From: an uncultured Actinomycetes bacterium
GTDB lineage: Bacteria; Actinomycetota; UBA4738; HRBIN12
DNA length: 64,000 nt
Direction: 5' to 3'
NCBI GenBank assembly: GCA_963704885.1
Contig: CAVPIB010000001.1
Span: 864,001 to 928,000, forward strand
The position numbers and the translations under genes were made by a program. Below the pieces are notes generated by a model, which was not told the DNA's origin, searched no databases, and worked only from the letters and a program-made list of their open reading frames with translations. Positions within the stretch are counted from its first letter, which is position 1. Each line of letters starts with the position of its first letter. Positions 30,993-38,051 of this stretch are shown piece after piece.

Positions 30993-32240
30993 CAGCGCGT
31001 CCGAGTCGCTCGGATCGATCGGCGATGTGGCGAATGCGGGTGGCCAGATCACGGCTGCCTGGCCGGGCGCCACCCATTCCCAGATCACGCTGGCCGCCGC
31101 CAGGTTGTCGCCTGCGTCGGACGAGCCGGGCGCGCCGAAGCGCAGGCCGCTGCCGTTGGGGAGGCTGCCCTGTGGGAGATCGATCGCGCGCGCGGCGGCG
31201 GCCACGTCCGCCGCATCCATCGAGTCCGCGGTGGGCAGGACGCTGGTGAAGAGCGCCCACGCCGCCGAGAACCCGGCGAGCGCGGCAGGGCTCATGTCCT
31301 TCTGCCAGCGGTCGCGGTACGCGTCGTTCGCGCGCTGGAGCAGTGCGCGTCCCTCGGGGCTCAGGCCGGCCGGATCGATCGATGCCGCCGACGGCTTGTC
31401 CGAGGCGTAGACGCCGACCGCGTCCTCACCCAGCGTGGCGCCGAATGCCGGCATGCAGTAGCTGGACGAAGTGCCTATGTTCGCCAGCAGCTCAACGTGC
31501 TGCGCGACCAGCTCGCGGCGAAGAGCGATCGCGTCCTCCAGGTACGCGGAGACGAACAGGACGTCTGGCCTGGCGGCTGCGATCTGCCGCACGAGTGCAG
31601 GCATGTCCACGGTCCTGAAGTCGTAGCTGAACTCCCCGACGTTGCGCAGGCCCCGCTCCTGAAGCTCGGTGCGCGCGCCCGACGCGACGGAGCTGCCGTA
31701 GACGTCGTCCACGTATGAGATCGCGTAACGAAGCGTGGCGGGATCGCGATCCTGCTCGGCTGCTACCTGGTCGTCGACGAAGGCGATCGCCGCGCGGCCG
31801 AGGACCTCGCCGGTGGGCGGGACGCGGAACGTCAGGCCTCCCCGGTCTGAGTTCGGCGGAAGCATGCCAACGGCGCCCGTCTCCCAGAACAGCATGCCGT
31901 TCGAGGCCGCCTGAGCGGAGGCCGGCGCCGAGATCGTGCTCCCGTAGCTGCCGAGGACCAGACCGACGCCGGCCGCGTCCAGCTGATCGATGGCGGACGC
32001 GGCCGCGTCTGACCCGGGCACGTCGATCGATCGGATCTCGATCTCGCGGCCGTCCACGCCGCCGTCCAGGTTGGCCAGGTCGGCCGCCAGCAGGACCCCC
32101 CGATACTCATCGATCCCGCCGGGGCCTTGGGAGCCCGAGAGTGGGTACACCGCACCCACCTGCAGGGTTCCGGAGCCGCCACCGCCGGAGCACGCCGCTC
32201 CCAAGAGCGCGAACGCCAGCACGACCTTCGTGAGCCTCAT
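30993..32240 (-). CDS. Lipoprotein ABC substrate-binding protein (branched-chain amino acid / periplasmic binding fold)
   Basis: Lipobox LGAAC, VGAVYPLSG, GSYGSTIS; no stop before the next gene. Confidence 0.8.
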
Positions 32241-32827
32241 CACCGCATCGTCACCGCCAGCAGGTTGGCCGCGGCGTGGGTCGCCGCGGGAACGCCCCAT
32301 GTTCCCGATGCCCACCGCTGCCACGAGAGCAGCAGGCCGGCCCCCAGGTCCACGGGGAACGCCGCAACGCCGTACAGAGGCACGTGGATCGCGGCGAACA
32401 TCAAGGCCGAACCGACGACGGCCACTGCGACCCCGTAGCGTTCCAGCCATCCGTAGGCAGCCCGCCGGAAGAGCGCCTCTTCGGCGACGGCGGCGAACAG
32501 GGCGAGTGGGAGAGCGGTCGCGCCGAGAGGGGCGGCGGGGATACGGCCCCCGGCCACCGCGGCCACACCGACGCCCGCCAGGCCGAGTGCCAGGACGGCG
32601 GCCGCGTTGAGCCGGACCCGGTCGCGCGCGGCCGGCGCCAGGAGCGAGGCCGCCAGGACCGCGCCGTAGAGCCCCGTCAGCAAGACGATCCGCGTAGCGT
32701 CCGGAGTGCGAAGGATCCATGTTCGGAGCAGGAGCACGGTGATGGCAGCGGCGACGAGGAGCGCCGTCCAGATGTCGAGCCGCGACGCGACGCGCATGTC
32801 CGCGACACGCGGGCTCGCGACGCTCAC
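32240..32827 (-). CDS. CPBP (CAAX/Abi) intramembrane glutamic protease
   Basis: EEALFR, FAAIH, THAAAN motifs. Confidence 0.88.
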   Translation of the reverse strand: MSVASPRVADMRVASRLDIWTALLVAAAITVLLLRTWILRTPDATRIVLLTGLYGAVLAASLLAPAARDRVRLNAAAVLALGLAGVGVAAVAGGRIPAAPLGATALPLALFAAVAEEALFRRAAYGWLERYGVAVAVVGSALMFAAIHVPLYGVAAFPVDLGAGLLLSWQRWASGTWGVPAATHAAANLLAVTMR

Positions 32828-33270
32828 GCCTTCACCTCGAACGCCACGGCCACGATTACGCGGGGATCGAACGGCGCATGATCCGTGGCGACGAACTCCA
32901 CCTTGAGCAGGTGCTGGCCCGGGGTGAGATTCGCGATGAGTTGTTCGAGCTCACCCGTCATGGTGACGAGCTGCTCGTCCAGGATGACGTGTAGGTGCCC
33001 CTCGTCGGGAACGACGTCCGTGGTGGTGGCGGCGACCACCTTCGCGTCCTTCAGCGACACCTTCAGCTGGACCGTGGTGCCTCGGATCACCTGCCCGTTC
33101 TTCGGGGAGACGATCGCAAGCTTCGCCGTGCTGGCGGGTCGGTCCGCGGCCGCGGTCGGCGCGGGCGAGGTTGGGCTCGGGGATCCGGCGTCACCTGAGC
33201 CGCAGGCGCTCGCCAAGACGACGAGCGACAGGCTGACGATGATCGCTCGTCCGCGGGATCTGCGCCTCAC
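32824..33270 (-). CDS. Lipoprotein with Ig-like GHxH domain (DUF4399-like), putative metal binding
   Basis: Lipobox LASAC, EGHLHVILD, DHAPF. Confidence 0.7.
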   Translation of the reverse strand: MRRRSRGRAIIVSLSLVVLASACGSGDAGSPSPTSPAPTAAADRPASTAKLAIVSPKNGQVIRGTTVQLKVSLKDAKVVAATTTDVVPDEGHLHVILDEQLVTMTGELEQLIANLTPGQHLLKVEFVATDHAPFDPRVIVAVAFEVKA

Positions 33271-33283
33271 GTCACACTCCCCT

Positions 33284-35275
33284 TCATATCGATTGCTCGA
33301 AGGATGCCACCAGCACGGCCCCGTCACCCGTCGTTGCTCGCAGGGAGAAGGTCCACAGACCGCTCGAGAGCGTGGTGTCGGATACGAAGTGTCCGGGGGA
33401 GAACCACTGGAGCTGGAGGATCGCCGCCGCGCCGTCGGGAGCGATCGCGATCATCTGAGCGTCTTCCAACTCCAGCTCGTTCCCGGTCGCGTCGAACGCC
33501 GTCAGGTGCAGCTGGCTCGGGCCGGCTACCGCCGGGTCGTTATACGCCTGGATCTGTACGCCACCCGGCAGCGTGATCGTGTAGAGGTCCGGCTGGCCCT
33601 CCGCAGTGGCTACGGAGACGGTCTGCTCCGGGCGCGTCACCAGCGTCAACGGTATCTCGGTTCCGGTCGACGAGGTCTGCACCACAACCGTTATGGTCCA
33701 GACCCCTTGGAGCGAGAGCTGCGTGCCGGTCGCCTGCCACCGCTCGCCCTCGCGCATCAGGTCCAGTGAGCTGGAGCCGACCCCGGCCTGTCCGATGGGC
33801 TCGAACCTGAGGGAGACATCGTTCGCGTCGATAGGCATGCCCGAGTCGAAGTCGGTCACTCGGACGTCGAACGTGTTGGGCCCTGCCGTGCCCGGTGTGA
33901 CGACGAGCCTGACATTCATGGTCGTGGCGAAGTCACTACCGTTCAACGTCGTGCGCTGCTCCACGGCGGGCGAGGCCGCGGCGGGTGGCTGCGGTGGCAG
34001 TCCGGTGAGCGTCCCGGTCAGGGCGAAGACACCCACGGCTCCGATCAGCTCGATCGCCATCACCCGGCGGATCAGGCCGGGACGGTCCTGAAGCCGCGGT
34101 ATGGAGCGATAGCGGTTGAACGCGCCGAGGGCGATGAGCAGGGCGACCACGGCGATCTTGATCGTGAGCGTGGTGCCGTAGGGGGTCTGGAAGAGCGGCA
34201 AGAGCTCGGTGAGGCCGCCTATCTCCTCGAAGGACCTAAGGACACCTGTAACGAGCACGACCGCCAGGGCGTAGCCTGCCAGCCTCGAGTAACGGCGGAT
34301 GTGGCGAGCGGTCTCATCCGCTCCGACCGCGCCGGGCGTCCTCTTCACCCCTTCGGTCGGATCGGATCAGCAGGAGCGCGAGAGCTATGCCGCCGATCCA
34401 CACGCCGATCGCCATGAAGTGGAGCCACTGCAGCGAGATCTGGACCGCCGGGGTGTCCGCGGCGGCGGCGTGGCCTCCCATGGCACGGACGAGCATGGCC
34501 GCCGCCGCGGTCTCCCCGACGACGGCGAGCGATGTGCGGCCGGACCTGCCAGCGGCGATGAGCGCCGCGACGGCTGCCACAGAAGCGGTCACCGACAACA
34601 GGATCGGATCGCGGCCCGTGTTCGATGAGAGCAGTTCGGTAAGCGAAACGTCGAGCGTGGCGCTTTGAGCCAGGACCATCGTCACGGCACCCAGTACCGC
34701 GAGAAGGGCTCCGATACGGAGCACCGTTCGCCGGGCGGGAACCACGCCGCCGAACGCCCATAGGCCCACTACGGCCGAGGCGAAGAGCAGGGCGAGCCCC
34801 GCGTACAGCGCCACCCTGCCCGCGACGCTCGCGAGCGACGGCGGGGGAGTAGCTTGCACCTGCACGCTGGGCTCTATCGCCGACCCAGGCGGCACGCCCA
34901 CGCCGAAGCCGAACGCGCCGGCCGAGGAGTGGCCGTCCGTCTCGGAGACCACGCGCCAGCTGACGGTGTAGACGCCGTCGGGCAGATCCGCGGGCAAGCT
35001 GATCCGGAGCTGATCGTCCGGGCCGGGCACGGCCTCGACTGGACCCGACTCGACGGGTGTGCCGTTCACGTCCAGGACGTGGACGATCGAGAGACGCGGA
35101 TCGGGTGGTTCGGTGAACGTCAGGGTGACCGTCGCCGGCGCGACATCCAGCGCGGCTCCGGACGCCGGGTCGGAGCTGGCCAGGCTGGCGTGCGCGTTGG
35201 CCACTCCGGCGAACGTCAGGGCGGACAGCCCCGCGAGCAAGAAGACCGCGATCGAGCGCCTGAGCGTGGTGTCAA
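33284..35275 (-). CDS. CopC-CopD-YtkA/FixH fusion copper uptake protein; frameshifts near 34335 and 35268
   Basis: Mature N-terminus HASL, SETDGH (CopC); GGHA, WLHF..GVWIGG (CopD); C-terminal Ig domains in a second frame. Confidence 0.85.
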
Positions 35276-35835
35276 GTGGACGCCCCAGCGGTGAACGCGA
35301 CGGTAGTTACCACCCGCGGGTCGAACGGGCCGTGATCCGCGGCCACGAACTCGGCCCGCAGCGTGTGCGATCCGGGGTCGAGTCCTGTGAGGTCGACCAG
35401 CTGGACCACGCCGTAGGTCATCGATACCAGCTGCCCGTCGAGCGAGAGATGGATGTGGCCGGTATCGGGGGTGAGCGCCGTGCTCGCGCTGTCGATCACG
35501 CGTCCTCCGGTCAGCTCCATCACCACCTCGGCTTGGTCCTCCTCGACATCCTCACCTGCAGTCGGTCTTTGGATCGTCAGCGTGGCAGTGGACGCGGGTC
35601 TCACGCCGCCCGGTGCGACGTTCGCGGGGTTCGGACGCATGAACTGTCGAGGCAGTATGAGCCCCGCGACCACCATCACCACGGCCACGCCCGACAGCAC
35701 CCACGCGGTCGCGAGGGGCAGCCGCGGGAACCCCCGTCCCCGGAGGCGGGACAGTCCCGCCCACCCGACCCACAGGCCCACGACGACGATCAGTAGCGTG
35801 ATCTGCTCGTCGGGGCTTCCTCCGTGCGCCAACAC
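35272..35835 (-). CDS. Membrane protein with N-terminal LAHGG and GHIH Ig-like domain
   Basis: Two TMs; C-terminal domain paralogous to 32824-33270 (GHIHLSLDG, DHGPF). Confidence 0.7.
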   Translation of the reverse strand: MLAHGGSPDEQITLLIVVVGLWVGWAGLSRLRGRGFPRLPLATAWVLSGVAVVMVVAGLILPRQFMRPNPANVAPGGVRPASTATLTIQRPTAGEDVEEDQAEVVMELTGGRVIDSASTALTPDTGHIHLSLDGQLVSMTYGVVQLVDLTGLDPGSHTLRAEFVAADHGPFDPRVVTTVAFTAGAST

Positions 35836-35841
35836 CTGCGG

Positions 35842-36492
35842 CTAGCTCCGCTTCCTGGTGACCAACGCCGCGACACCCACGATCAGGCCGAGCGCGCCGA
35901 GCACGATCCCGAGCATGCCGACGGTCCTGGCGCTCGCGGCCGCGTCGTTCGCGGCGTCGATCTCGCCGGCCGCTATCGCGAGCTCGCCGGCTGTCCTCTC
36001 CGATTCTTTCTCGATGCGCGAGGCCAGATCCGAGTTAGTGGGGTACTGCACCGGCGGGAACGTCGCGGCGGCGATGTCCTGGGCTTCGTCGAACGTCTTG
36101 GGTCCCGACGTGACGGACAGGGCGACCTCGTCGTCGCCGACCGAACCGGCGAGCGTGAACGTGTACGGGCCCGCCTGAGACGGGACGAAGGGCGCCTGGA
36201 ACTGCCCGGGCTCCTCCATCGGCTCGAACACCATCGGATCCGATGTCTGGTCGCCGAACCCGAGCGTGACCGTGAGCGAGTCTCCGACGTCGGTCACGGC
36301 GTGACCATCCCGCCTGAGCGCGAGGAAGACGGCGTTCGGCACGCCCACGAAGACCGGCTCATCGCGGAACCCGATCTCGAGCTCGAGCGGTCCCACTGTC
36401 TCTTCCGTATGTCCGGTCGCGACCTCGGGGACGAACATGACCATCGTTGCCGCCAAGACGGCGGCGGCCGAGAGCTTCGCTGGGATACGCAT
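35842..36492 (-). CDS. Secreted membrane-anchored Ig-fold protein with predicted N-terminal His
   Basis: Signal peptide ending ATG then HTEE; C-terminal TM; AAGGAG RBS. Confidence 0.72.
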   Translation of the reverse strand: MRIPAKLSAAAVLAATMVMFVPEVATGHTEETVGPLELEIGFRDEPVFVGVPNAVFLALRRDGHAVTDVGDSLTVTLGFGDQTSDPMVFEPMEEPGQFQAPFVPSQAGPYTFTLAGSVGDDEVALSVTSGPKTFDEAQDIAAATFPPVQYPTNSDLASRIEKESERTAGELAIAAGEIDAANDAAASARTVGMLGIVLGALGLIVGVAALVTRKRS

Positions 36493-36550
36493 AGGTGGTG
36501 CTCCTTCCGTCGTCTGATGTTCGCGCCGGCAGGCGCCAGGGCTCGATCCC

Positions 36551-37117
36551 TCAGAGAGCGGTCGGAGGACCTCGAACGCCGGTCGCGAACAGCTCGCGTC
36601 CGGTCGGGGCGAACGCACCCGTTGGAAGCGCGTACGCCGCCACCTGGCGCTGCGGCGCCTCCGCCCCCGTCGCCAGGGACGCGACTCGGTCGGCGAGGCG
36701 CAGCAGCCAACGGATGGCCGCGGCCGCCAGGGATGCGACCCCGATCTGCGCGGCGATGCCCAGCGGCAAGAGGTGCGCCTGGAACAGTCCGGCGAGCGCT
36801 GCGCCCGTCGCCACACGTTCGAGGACCTCCATCCCCAGGAAGGCGCTCACCTGGAACGCGATCATCCGCTGGGTGACGGACACACCATCGTCTGTGCTCC
36901 GCTTCGTCAACCTGCTCAGGAAGATCGAGGCGAACGCCACGAGCGCCGCCACGAGCGCGATGTCGCTCACGAGATCGAGGTACGAGTGTCCGGTGTCGTG
37001 AAGGATCACCGCGCGCTCGTGGGCACTGGGCGAGACGGCCAGGTAGGTCAGCCAGTGGCCTGCCAGCACGCCGCCTACGGCGACACCCAGCGTCGCCAGG
37101 CGACGTCGAGGACTCAT
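36551..37117 (-). CDS. His-rich membrane leader protein ending in RGPP (putative arrest peptide)
   Basis: About 4 TMs, GHWLTY, LHDTGHSYL, C-terminal GVRGPPTAL; TACAAT -10 box 7 nt before ATG. Confidence 0.72.
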   Translation of the reverse strand: MSPRRRLATLGVAVGGVLAGHWLTYLAVSPSAHERAVILHDTGHSYLDLVSDIALVAALVAFASIFLSRLTKRSTDDGVSVTQRMIAFQVSAFLGMEVLERVATGAALAGLFQAHLLPLGIAAQIGVASLAAAAIRWLLRLADRVASLATGAEAPQRQVAAYALPTGAFAPTGRELFATGVRGPPTAL

Positions 37118-37138
37118 GGCCCGGATTGTAGGCTTGCG

Positions 37139-37182
37139 GCCGGACAGAGCCTTGGGGGACGCCGGACAGAGCCTTGGGGGAC
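37139..37182. repeat. Perfect 22-bp tandem duplication
   Basis: GCCGGACAGAGCCTTGGGGGAC x2. Confidence 0.9.
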
Positions 37183-37190
37183 GGAAGACC

Positions 37191-38051
37191 GTGGATCCAC
37201 GAGACGTTCGGCACGTGGGGGTGGTGGGATGCGGCCTGATGGGCTCGGGCATCGTCGAGGTGGTCGCGCGCACAGGGAGCGAGGTGACCTTCGTCGAGGG
37301 GACCGACGAGCTGGTCGCGCGGGGCAGGGCGTCGATCGAACGCTCTGTGGGCAAGGCCGTTGATCGCGGCAAGATCCAGGAGGCCGATGCTCAGGCGCTG
37401 CTCGCGCGGGTGAACGGCGCGACCGACCTAGCCGCCCTCGAGGGATCCGATCTGGTCATCGAGGCTGCGACCGAGGATCTCCAGGCGAAGATCGCGATCT
37501 TCCGGACACTCGGAGAGATCATGCGACCCGAGGTCATCCTGGCGTCCAACACGTCGTCCATCCCGATCGTCGAGCTGGCGATAGCGTCGGGACGACCGGA
37601 CCGCGTGATCGGGATGCACTTCTTCAACCCACCGCCCGTCATGGCGCTCCTGGAGCTGACACCGGCGCTCACGACCTCCGACGAGACGGTGGCGCTCATC
37701 CGCGCCTACGGCACCGATGTGTTGGGCAAGACGTGCGTGCTGGCCAAGGATCAGGCGGGATTCATCGTGAACCGGCTGCTCACCCCCTACCTCTTCGATG
37801 CGGTCCGACTGTTGGAGCAGGGGTTCGCCTCGGCCGAGGACATCGACACCGCCGCGCATCTGGGGCTCGGCCATCCGATGGGACCGCTCGCGCTGCTGGA
37901 TCTGATCGGGCTGGACACCATGTTGAGCGTGGGCGAGGTGCTGTTCGAGGAGTTCCGCGACGAGCGCTACGCGCCGCCGCCGCTCCTGCGTCGGATGGTC
38001 GCCTCGGGGCGGCTGGGCCGCAAGTCAGGCGGCGGCTTCTACGAGGACTGA
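37191..38051 (+). CDS. hbd: 3-hydroxybutyryl-CoA dehydrogenase
   Basis: GCGLMGSG, SNTSS, GMHFFNP, GFIVNR, HPMGP. Confidence 0.92.
   Translation: MDPRDVRHVGVVGCGLMGSGIVEVVARTGSEVTFVEGTDELVARGRASIERSVGKAVDRGKIQEADAQALLARVNGATDLAALEGSDLVIEAATEDLQAKIAIFRTLGEIMRPEVILASNTSSIPIVELAIASGRPDRVIGMHFFNPPPVMALLELTPALTTSDETVALIRAYGTDVLGKTCVLAKDQAGFIVNRLLTPYLFDAVRLLEQGFASAEDIDTAAHLGLGHPMGPLALLDLIGLDTMLSVGEVLFEEFRDERYAPPPLLRRMVASGRLGRKSGGGFYED

Follow-up and report, generated by a model that had tools for sequence, protein, structure and literature searches.

We analyzed a 64,000-nucleotide stretch of DNA from an uncultured Actinomycetes bacterium (assembly GCA_963704885.1, contig CAVPIB010000001.1, positions 864,001 to 928,000; hereafter the window, in whose coordinates all positions are given), and conclude that the first gene of a copper operon within it, gene A, probably encodes a regulator that belongs to the RAPP/RGPP class of arrest proteins, such that a ribosome stalled near the end of gene A would open the Shine-Dalgarno sequence (SD) of the following gene, gene B. 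Four observations carry this conclusion: the RGPP motif is conserved across a large family, the linker that precedes it is of constant length, the RNA helix that pairs the end of gene A with the SD of gene B is conserved and shows co-variation, and the gene order is maintained. By analogy with RGPP and RAPP proteins that have been tested, we infer that ribosomes arrest at the RGPP of gene A.

A preliminary description of this locus had proposed a copper-sensing leader that arrests ribosomes, with clustered histidines and a C-terminal RGPP, overlapped by an mRNA stem beside the SD of the next gene. The open reading frame (ORF), the RGPP motif, the SD, the complementarity of the stem and the leaderless start that it listed are all present in the sequence. 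Its interpretation was right in kind (an RGPP motif, a His-bearing polytopic protein and coupling to an SD), but wrong on which RNA pairing matters.

Conservation of the RGPP motif in a large protein family

Gene A is a 188-residue ORF on the minus strand, as are all features described below except where noted (36551-37117; ATG 37117-37115, TGA 36553-36551), and encodes five histidines (H21, H33, H40, H44 and H115) and no cysteine. The codons CGA GGT CCT CCG (36574-36563) specify R182-G183-P184-P185 and are followed by Thr-Ala-Leu-stop, which makes the motif near-terminal (residues 182-185 of 188, three codons ahead of the stop) rather than terminal. The protein matched no Pfam or NCBIfam model (Pfam E <= 0.01); at E <= 10 its sole Pfam match was Cyt_c_ox_IV (E = 1), and DUF2946 gave no match, as the preliminary description had anticipated.

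The motif is retained throughout the relatives of gene A. A word-indexed protein search returned 169 matches at E <= 1e-3, and among the best 120 of these 169, 115 carry [V/I/L]RGPP 1-10 residues from the C-terminus, with the five that have no terminal motif being frameshift-like or partial. An exhaustive phmmer search of 1.84 billion representatives of 50% identity clusters found 1048 gene A-family clusters at E <= 1e-3 (299 at E <= 1e-10). In a distant set, made up of the 148 new representatives (30-58% identity) among the best 150 of these 1048 matches, R[G/A/S]PP lies 1-10 residues from the end in 137 (RGPP in 77, RAPP in 53 and RSPP in 7), and the remaining 11 are truncated, fused or frameshift-like. 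When 138 sequences were aligned, R182, P184 and P185 were invariant in all, and position 183 was G in 78, A in 53 and S in 7. Each motif codon occurs in 4-5 synonymous forms (two for Ala) among 66 unique loci, and this variation at all four codons points to selection on the peptide, not on the nucleotides. The mean consensus fraction is 0.29 in the linker before the motif, 0.50 in the core and 0.71 at positions 180-185. Judged by these sequence comparisons, the RxPP motif is conserved far beyond chance, and what the preliminary description had noticed in a single ORF is shared across a large family.

A four-helix bundle, a linker of constant length and a candidate metal site

An AlphaFold2 (AF2) model of gene A, built with a 138-row alignment, predicts a confident bundle (mean predicted local distance difference test, pLDDT, of 86) with helices at 3-28, 32-41, 47-71, 81-104 and 116-149, of which four are long and hydrophobic, followed by a disordered 39-residue tail (150-188; pLDDT ~60) that ends in V-R-G-P-P-T-A-L. 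The model and the lack of Cys agree with the earlier assignment of gene A as a polytopic, Cys-free membrane protein; among 252 motif-bearing family members, 125 have no Cys. A Foldseek search of the model against the PDB found no relative at E <= 1e-3.

Positive charges are located at the N-terminus, in the loop 72-80 and after helix 4, which makes N-in/C-in the simplest topology. With this topology, H21, Y25, H44, E97, E100, R101, G120 and Q124 would all lie at the extracytoplasmic end. Apart from the RxPP residues, the invariant columns of the 138-sequence alignment are H21, Y25, H44, E97, E100, R101 and G120, with Q89 and Q124 nearly invariant. Thus, the His cluster of the preliminary description stands in part: H21 and H44 are invariant and are joined by E97, E100 and R101, but H33 and H40 are variable (His in 55 and 10 of the 138 sequences). 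Copper sensing by a putative extracytoplasmic 2-His/2-Glu cluster (H21/H44/E97/E100) would be a plausible hypothesis.

The linker between bundle and motif is poorly conserved in sequence and nearly fixed in length: D143 and R182 are 36-43 residues apart in every one of the 138 sequences (mean 39.6, standard deviation 1.2). The ribosomal exit tunnel holds 30-40 residues. With P184 in the P site, the tunnel would hold just the linker, and helix 4 would have barely emerged. Translocon force-profile work places the strongest pull of a hydrophobic segment on the nascent chain at this distance.

An RNA helix formed by the end of gene A is predicted to bury the gene B SD

Gene B starts at 36492, 58 nt past the stop codon of gene A on the same strand, and its SD, GGAAGGAG (36501-36508), is located 8 nt before its ATG (36492-36490). 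We folded the region 36620-36480, as had been suggested for this locus. Both the minimum free energy (MFE) and the centroid folds contain an interrupted helix of 17 bp in which 36571-36551 (the stop codon and the six codons before it, for Gly, Pro, Pro, Thr, Ala and Leu) is joined to 36517-36497 (UCAGACGACGGAAGGAGCACC, which includes the SD), such that 6 of the 8 SD nucleotides are paired in free mRNA. The long helix encloses a G+C-rich inner hairpin (36519-36549; UCGCGCC-loop-GGCGCGA in most relatives), and the 85-nt element as a whole has a folding energy of -35.9 kcal/mol (z = -2.51). Pairing of the Gly-Pro-Pro codons with the SD had been a secondary idea of the preliminary description and turns out to be the relevant RNA; the stem to which it gave first place was absent from the MFE fold.

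We examined whether relatives share this arrangement in 82 loci with an identifiable gene A C-terminus, a set obtained after 79 further metagenome loci had been added. The frame is intact in 76 of these (RGPP in 56, RAPP in 20), and the other six are frameshifted genome loci added by position. In the 76 intact loci, the tail after the motif is 3 codons long in 44 and 6 codons long in 20, and a gene B start was recognisable in 74 of the 82, mostly 47-61 nt past the gene A stop. Individual MFE folds gave a matching layout in most of 18 genome loci, with loci L005 and L011 and the atypical loci L009 and L017 as exceptions.

Duplex energies were then compared in 66 unique sequences, with the segment from motif codon 2 through the stop set against the 31 nt before the gene B start. 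The mean energy of the arm duplex was -21.4 kcal/mol, compared to -15.2 kcal/mol for a control segment of equal length upstream of the motif, and in 54 of 66 loci the control gave the weaker duplex of the two. Relative to composition-preserving shuffles of the 5′ arm, the duplex reached p <= 0.05 in 37 of 66 and p <= 0.01 in 29 of 66. When the RxPP codons and the SD were excluded and each arm was tested against dissimilar partners from other loci, the arm's own partner beat the median in 57 of 66 loci and 90% of the partners in 25 of 66 (mean energies of -10.6 kcal/mol for own arms and -7.2 kcal/mol for cross partners). Moreover, the RAPPSFLVAA subfamily has unrelated arm sequences and yet forms a 26-pair consensus helix that runs from the Ala codon to the SD.

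Within the close group, a hand-drawn structure of 21 pairs had 84% of cells paired, compared to 31-46% when the 3′ partner was slid by 1-3 columns, a comparison that leans in favor of the structure since it was derived from the tested sequences. Double changes occurred at six pairs (2.3 expected), a number equalled in 1 of 500 shuffles, and the 6 pairs of the inner hairpin had 97.7% of cells paired among 30 sequences. Read from the sequences, the tail and stop codons form an arm predicted to bury the SD, and this layout is kept by subfamilies whose arm sequences are unrelated. In both subfamilies the part of the 5′ arm that pairs with the SD lies within ~16 nt 3′ of the P-site Pro codon, and would therefore be covered by a ribosome stalled at RxP|P.

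Two other RNA features were noted. In a distant RGPP subgroup (L087, L089, L092, L096 and L097), gene A ends in TAA; in L087, L096 and L097 the stop is followed by a G+C hairpin, then by CCUCCUUC and a weak AAAGGAA SD, and in L089 and L092 by a longer, different spacer. This subgroup may use a different read-out, possibly attenuation. In the window itself, a near-perfect hairpin (CCGG-A-CGCGA, loop GCUGU, UCGCG-A-CCGG) lies within the gene A ORF at 36604-36579, in the codons for T-G-R-E-L-F-A-T-G; it is specific to one subclade and competes with pairing of 36591-36578 to 36530-36518.

Gene B and the conserved gene order

Gene B (35842-36492) is predicted to be a 216-residue exported beta-sandwich protein with a C-terminal membrane anchor. 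It has no Pfam match. Its AF2 model (pLDDT 82) has beta-sandwich strands in 28-128 and a long C-terminal helix (153-215), and the best PDB match of the model is the copper-resistance determinant CrdA of H. pylori (E 3.5e-5, target TM-score 0.66). H28 is invariant in 38 of 38 aligned proteins and directly follows an A-x-A-type signal-peptide end, which suggests that it is the first residue after signal-peptide cleavage. None of the 38 gene B-family proteins matched DUF1775 (YcnI) at E <= 1, and 10 of the 38 had a weak YtkA-like match. Gene B has what we take to be the YcnI architecture, with a post-cleavage N-terminal His, a beta-sandwich and a C-terminal membrane anchor; by these profile searches it is not a recognisable member of YcnI/DUF1775. 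It is an unannotated copper-protein candidate with an N-terminal His.

A gene B-family gene comes directly after gene A in 74 of the 82 loci; among the eight exceptions, five are cases in which the contig ends. The remainder of the operon (32240-35835) encodes a DUF4399-like protein (35272-35835), CopC together with the N-terminal half of CopD (34314-35240), the C-terminal half of CopD together with a YtkA-like domain (33284-34348), a DUF6130-like lipoprotein (32824-33327) and a CPBP protease (32240-32827), and a 3-hydroxyacyl-CoA dehydrogenase gene is divergent from gene A. This gene order is kept in 18 of 19 species-representative genome loci, all from uncultured Actinomycetes or Actinomycetota metagenome-assembled genomes. 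When 301 genomes drawn from across the phylum were searched with a profile, 83 of them, spread over 60 of the 198 genera, had the gene A family, with a concentration in five families (13/16, 12/20, 17/21, 8/10 and 16/21); these tallies include eight genomes marked unpublished, all with matches (G001, G018, G082, G088, G148, G174, G226 and G239). The genome of the window itself has one copy.

Several details of these genes are recorded here. The CopC-CopD-YtkA region of the window is split into two overlapping ORFs of different frames (junction near 34345-34375), and is a single open frame in L001, L003, L004, L008, L010 and L013; the split is either a frameshift/pseudogene in this genome or an assembly error. 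The DUF4399-like and DUF6130-like proteins are a paralogous pair with the common motifs G-H-[I/L]-H and D-H-x-P-F-D-P-R-V, one membrane-anchored and one a lipoprotein, and both are unannotated metal-binding candidates. In L009 and L035, the genes that begin 129 nt behind an RGPP family member are lgt, DUF929, one for a BNR-repeat protein and a thioredoxin-like gene in place of copper genes, an arrangement that resembles the thioredoxin-linked arrest proteins described in the available part of a survey of this class (Fujiwara et al., EMBO J 2025, PMC12992588, available in part). In L081, an unknown ORF and then CopC follow gene A.

The start of gene A

A TACAAT -10 box (37125-37130) ends 7 nt upstream of the gene A ATG with no SD in between, and all 28 relatives examined have a TAnnnT box at matching distance ahead of their gene A homolog, with L009 and L035 differing slightly at 8 nt. 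From these features it is reasonable to read the gene A mRNA as leaderless. A consensus scan of 36300-37400 detected no sigma-70 -35/-10 pair, promoter or terminator.

Just upstream of the -10 box, a 22-nt unit (GTCCCCCAAGGCTCTGTCCGGC) is perfectly duplicated in tandem (37139-37182); it is single-copy in relatives such as L020. At the start codon, a CATG palindrome (37115-37118) makes the gene A ATG overlap the first in-frame ATG of the divergent dehydrogenase ORF. In tblastn comparisons with most loci, conservation of the dehydrogenase does not set in until about residues 15-25, so that translation of this ORF probably begins further in.

A model for arrest-dependent translation of gene B

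We propose that the leaderless mRNA of gene A would be translated while the four-helix bundle inserts co-translationally into the membrane, until R182-G183-P184 is reached. With the P184 codon in the P site and the Pro185 codon in the A site of the presumed arrest site (36563-36574), as assigned by analogy with the arrest peptide CruR, peptide-bond formation would stall. At the stall, the disordered linker of ~40 residues would fill the exit tunnel, and the last helix (116-149) would be just out. The stalled ribosome would cover the Pro, tail and stop codons (36571-36551), which would otherwise bury the SD through 36517-36497; the SD would then be free, and gene B, probably along with the coupled copper genes behind it, would be translated for as long as the stall lasts. 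The duration of the stall would probably be determined by how hard the bundle pulls as it inserts and packs, and this force may depend on metal occupancy of the invariant H21/H44/E97/E100 cluster at the extracytoplasmic helix ends. Exposure of the SD by the stalled ribosome, the dependence on force, and the dependence on copper with its polarity are steps that we infer.

A more specific form of this proposal, which we hold tentatively and think possible rather than probable, is that the family acts as a co-translational folding sensor for extracytoplasmic copper, in which packing of helix 4 on a metal-loaded or an empty 2-His/2-Glu bundle sets the force and with it the opening of the SD. The first three helices would already form the site on the outer face while the ribosome waits at RGP|P, and the SD of these copper-uptake-type genes would stay open for a time determined by the pull on the 40-residue linker. 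If so, gene A would be an arrest protein that is polytopic, has no Cys and senses metal through His and Glu, which would set it apart from the Cys peptides of DUF2946, and it would be a natural case in which the folding force of a membrane protein serves as a signal.

Evidence against arrest and alternative explanations

Several results weigh against regulated arrest. RNAalifold recovered no structure from all 55 RxPP-to-start segments, which we ascribe to subfamilies being out of register, and recovered the inner hairpin only from 30 close sequences; it was because of these limits that we counted the hand-drawn structure and used alignment-free duplex tests. Most helix pairs are nearly constant among the close sequences, which leaves classical covariation weak. 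Arm-SD pairing was not found in six distant loci (L063, L087, L089, L092, L096 and L097), and three loci (L009, L035 and L081) have a gene A protein with no gene B. Modelled SD accessibility was 0.27 in free mRNA, 0.51 with a stalled ribosome and 0.54 with a terminating ribosome; thus, ordinary translational coupling would be expected to open the helix too. Finally, gene A is strongly conserved across 150 residues that form a well-defined fold, beyond the needs of a mere leader, and may therefore have a function of its own.

The last two of these points are also the strength of the best alternative, which we nevertheless consider unlikely: that RGPP causes a constitutive pause, not modulated by any signal, that ties synthesis of B to that of A by translational coupling, with gene A as a membrane component that itself takes part in copper handling, for instance a partner of B or of CopCD that hands over copper through its His/Glu site. 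The confidently folded bundle, with its invariant polar cluster, and the presence of A and B together in 74 of 82 loci fit this view well, as does the prediction that a terminating ribosome opens the helix as well as a stalled one. However, RAPP/RGPP is a strong arrest motif that is refractory to elongation factor P (EF-P) and strongly excluded from proteomes (PMC12992588), and the strict retention of the motif, together with a constant linker that would place the last helix just outside the tunnel, exceeds what simple coupling needs. Furthermore, the relatives in this class that have been tested, CruR and CutF, respond to a ligand.

We find it improbable that R-x-P-P is instead a docking, sorting or processing signal that acts at the level of the protein, with no arrest and with the RNA helix as ordinary translational coupling. 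Such a role would suit the location of the motif on a disordered cytoplasmic tail, typical of short linear motifs, and the CPBP protease gene conserved in the operon, but position 2 is mainly G (78) and A (53), the two robustly arresting forms, with S in 7 (RSPP is not among the variants in the available part of PMC12992588). Residues after the motif are free to vary, the codons just 3′ of it build the SD-pairing arm in unrelated subfamilies, and all seven S. lividans proteins with C-terminal RAPP/RGPP that were tested arrested (PMC12992588).

Least probable of all is that the switch is the stem first proposed beside the SD (36578-36591 with 36518-36530), for although the two segments are indeed complementary (13 bp with one bulged A) and part of the stem forms in a naive fold with the ribosome on RGPP, a calculation that we do not trust since it lets upstream mRNA pair across the ribosome, the stem is in neither the MFE nor the centroid fold and costs 5.8 kcal/mol to enforce (-57.2 compared to -63.0), its 5′ half (36578-36591) pairs locally with 36595-36604 within the ORF in the MFE fold, it needs the R-E-L-F-A-T-G codons of one subclade when most relatives encode H-L-S-A-A-G and have no stem, and the control duplex from upstream of the motif is the weaker one in 54 of 66 loci, as described above.

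Relationship to known arrest systems

The type of switch that we propose was described in 2022-2025, and what is new is the family, which is large, widespread and unannotated, and which falls within a class already published. As arrest cores, RAPP and RGPP are versatile and refractory to EF-P, and RGPP was the most robust of the motifs tested; both are depleted from proteomes, are over-represented close to the C-terminal ends of small proteins of the secretory and membrane type, and occur preferentially in genes upstream of those for TonB receptors, YcnI-family proteins, PCu(A)C and PepSY (PMC12992588). Most of the RAPP/RGPP proteins encoded upstream of YcnI have transmembrane segments, and the seven arresting S. 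lividans proteins, for which arrest was motif-dependent both in vitro and in vivo, include SLIV_18480, a protein with four transmembrane segments that is encoded upstream of a metal-related gene and was proposed as a metal sensor (PMC12992588). Gene A resembles this class in having fewer than 300 residues, an RGPP a few residues before the stop, and a copper-related gene downstream on the same strand, and it resembles the membrane proteins of the class, which were proposed as metal-sensing arrest peptides, in its four predicted hydrophobic transmembrane helices, its conserved His as a predicted metal site and its origin in Actinomycetota. Position of the motif, transmembrane helices and same-strand downstream gene together make it a probable member of the class. 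Thus, the novelty claimed for a distinct His-based sensor was overstated: gene A is indeed not DUF2946, but RAPP/RGPP membrane proteins before YcnI and other copper genes, proposed as metal sensors, have been published for Actinomycetota (PMC12992588).

There are also differences from the published members. By its description, SLIV_18480 has three His, one Met and two Cys, whereas in the gene A family two His and two Glu are invariant and Cys is often absent. Unlike the proteins upstream of YcnI, gene A precedes a gene that is not recognisable as YcnI/DUF1775 (0 of 38). The SD-sequestering helix built from tail codons in gene A is not described in the available part of PMC12992588. The readable supplement of that paper includes a 193-residue RAPP protein upstream of a DUF1775 gene (MBV8480402.1) that shows motifs of the gene A family by eye, unaligned; six family motif strings gave no match in its readable part, and the family may be listed elsewhere in it. 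A literature search found no paper on the gene A family. A family with no Pfam or NCBIfam model may now be read as a putative translational switch before copper genes in uncultured soil and sediment actinobacteria, and its tail codons as anti-SD, its constant linker and its four-residue candidate metal site make the force- and metal-sensing ideas of 2025 testable.

The closest functional parallels are DUF2946 proteins. CruR of Bordetella pertussis (Roy et al. 2022, PMC9426467, available in part) is encoded by an upstream ORF (uORF) that ends in RAPP and, like the one proposed for gene A, exerts post-transcriptional control on a downstream copper-related gene; copper is proposed to release the arrest, during which one Pro codon of the motif occupies the P site and the other the A site (PMC12992588). 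The gene downstream of CruR encodes a TonB-dependent receptor, unlike gene B, and nearly all RAPP/RGPP uORF proteins upstream of such receptors have a predicted signal sequence (PMC12992588). CruR belongs to DUF2946, whereas gene A, with four helices, has no DUF2946 match at E <= 10 and, with no Cys, no DUF2946-type copper motif (CxxC or CxxxC). CutF of Rhodobacter capsulatus, likewise DUF2946, has a layout like that of gene A, in that the ribosome-binding site of the next gene is hidden in a stem-loop until a ribosome stalled close to the C-terminus melts it, and it relays an extracytoplasmic metal signal through the nascent chain, as we propose for gene A (Ozturk et al., bioRxiv 10.1101/2025.02.05.636593). 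In contrast to gene A, CutF stalls at PPP in an EF-P-sensitive manner, relies on disulfides and a CxxxC motif, is a secreted and not a polytopic protein, and acts on the multicopper oxidase CutO (bioRxiv 10.1101/2025.02.05.636593).

A broader likeness is to SecM, MifM, VemP, ApdA and ApdP, in which a force-releasable arrest near the C-terminus unmasks a downstream SD through the arrested ribosome, as would be the case for gene A. The arrest motif of SecM, G-I-R-A-G-P, resembles the G-[V/I]-R-G-P-P of gene A. These proteins control components of the Sec or YidC machinery, whereas gene A precedes gene B, DUF4399, CopC, CopD/YtkA, DUF6130 and CPBP genes, and the presumed sensing domain of gene A is a conserved four-helix bundle in place of the simple signal or anchor of the SecM-type substrates.

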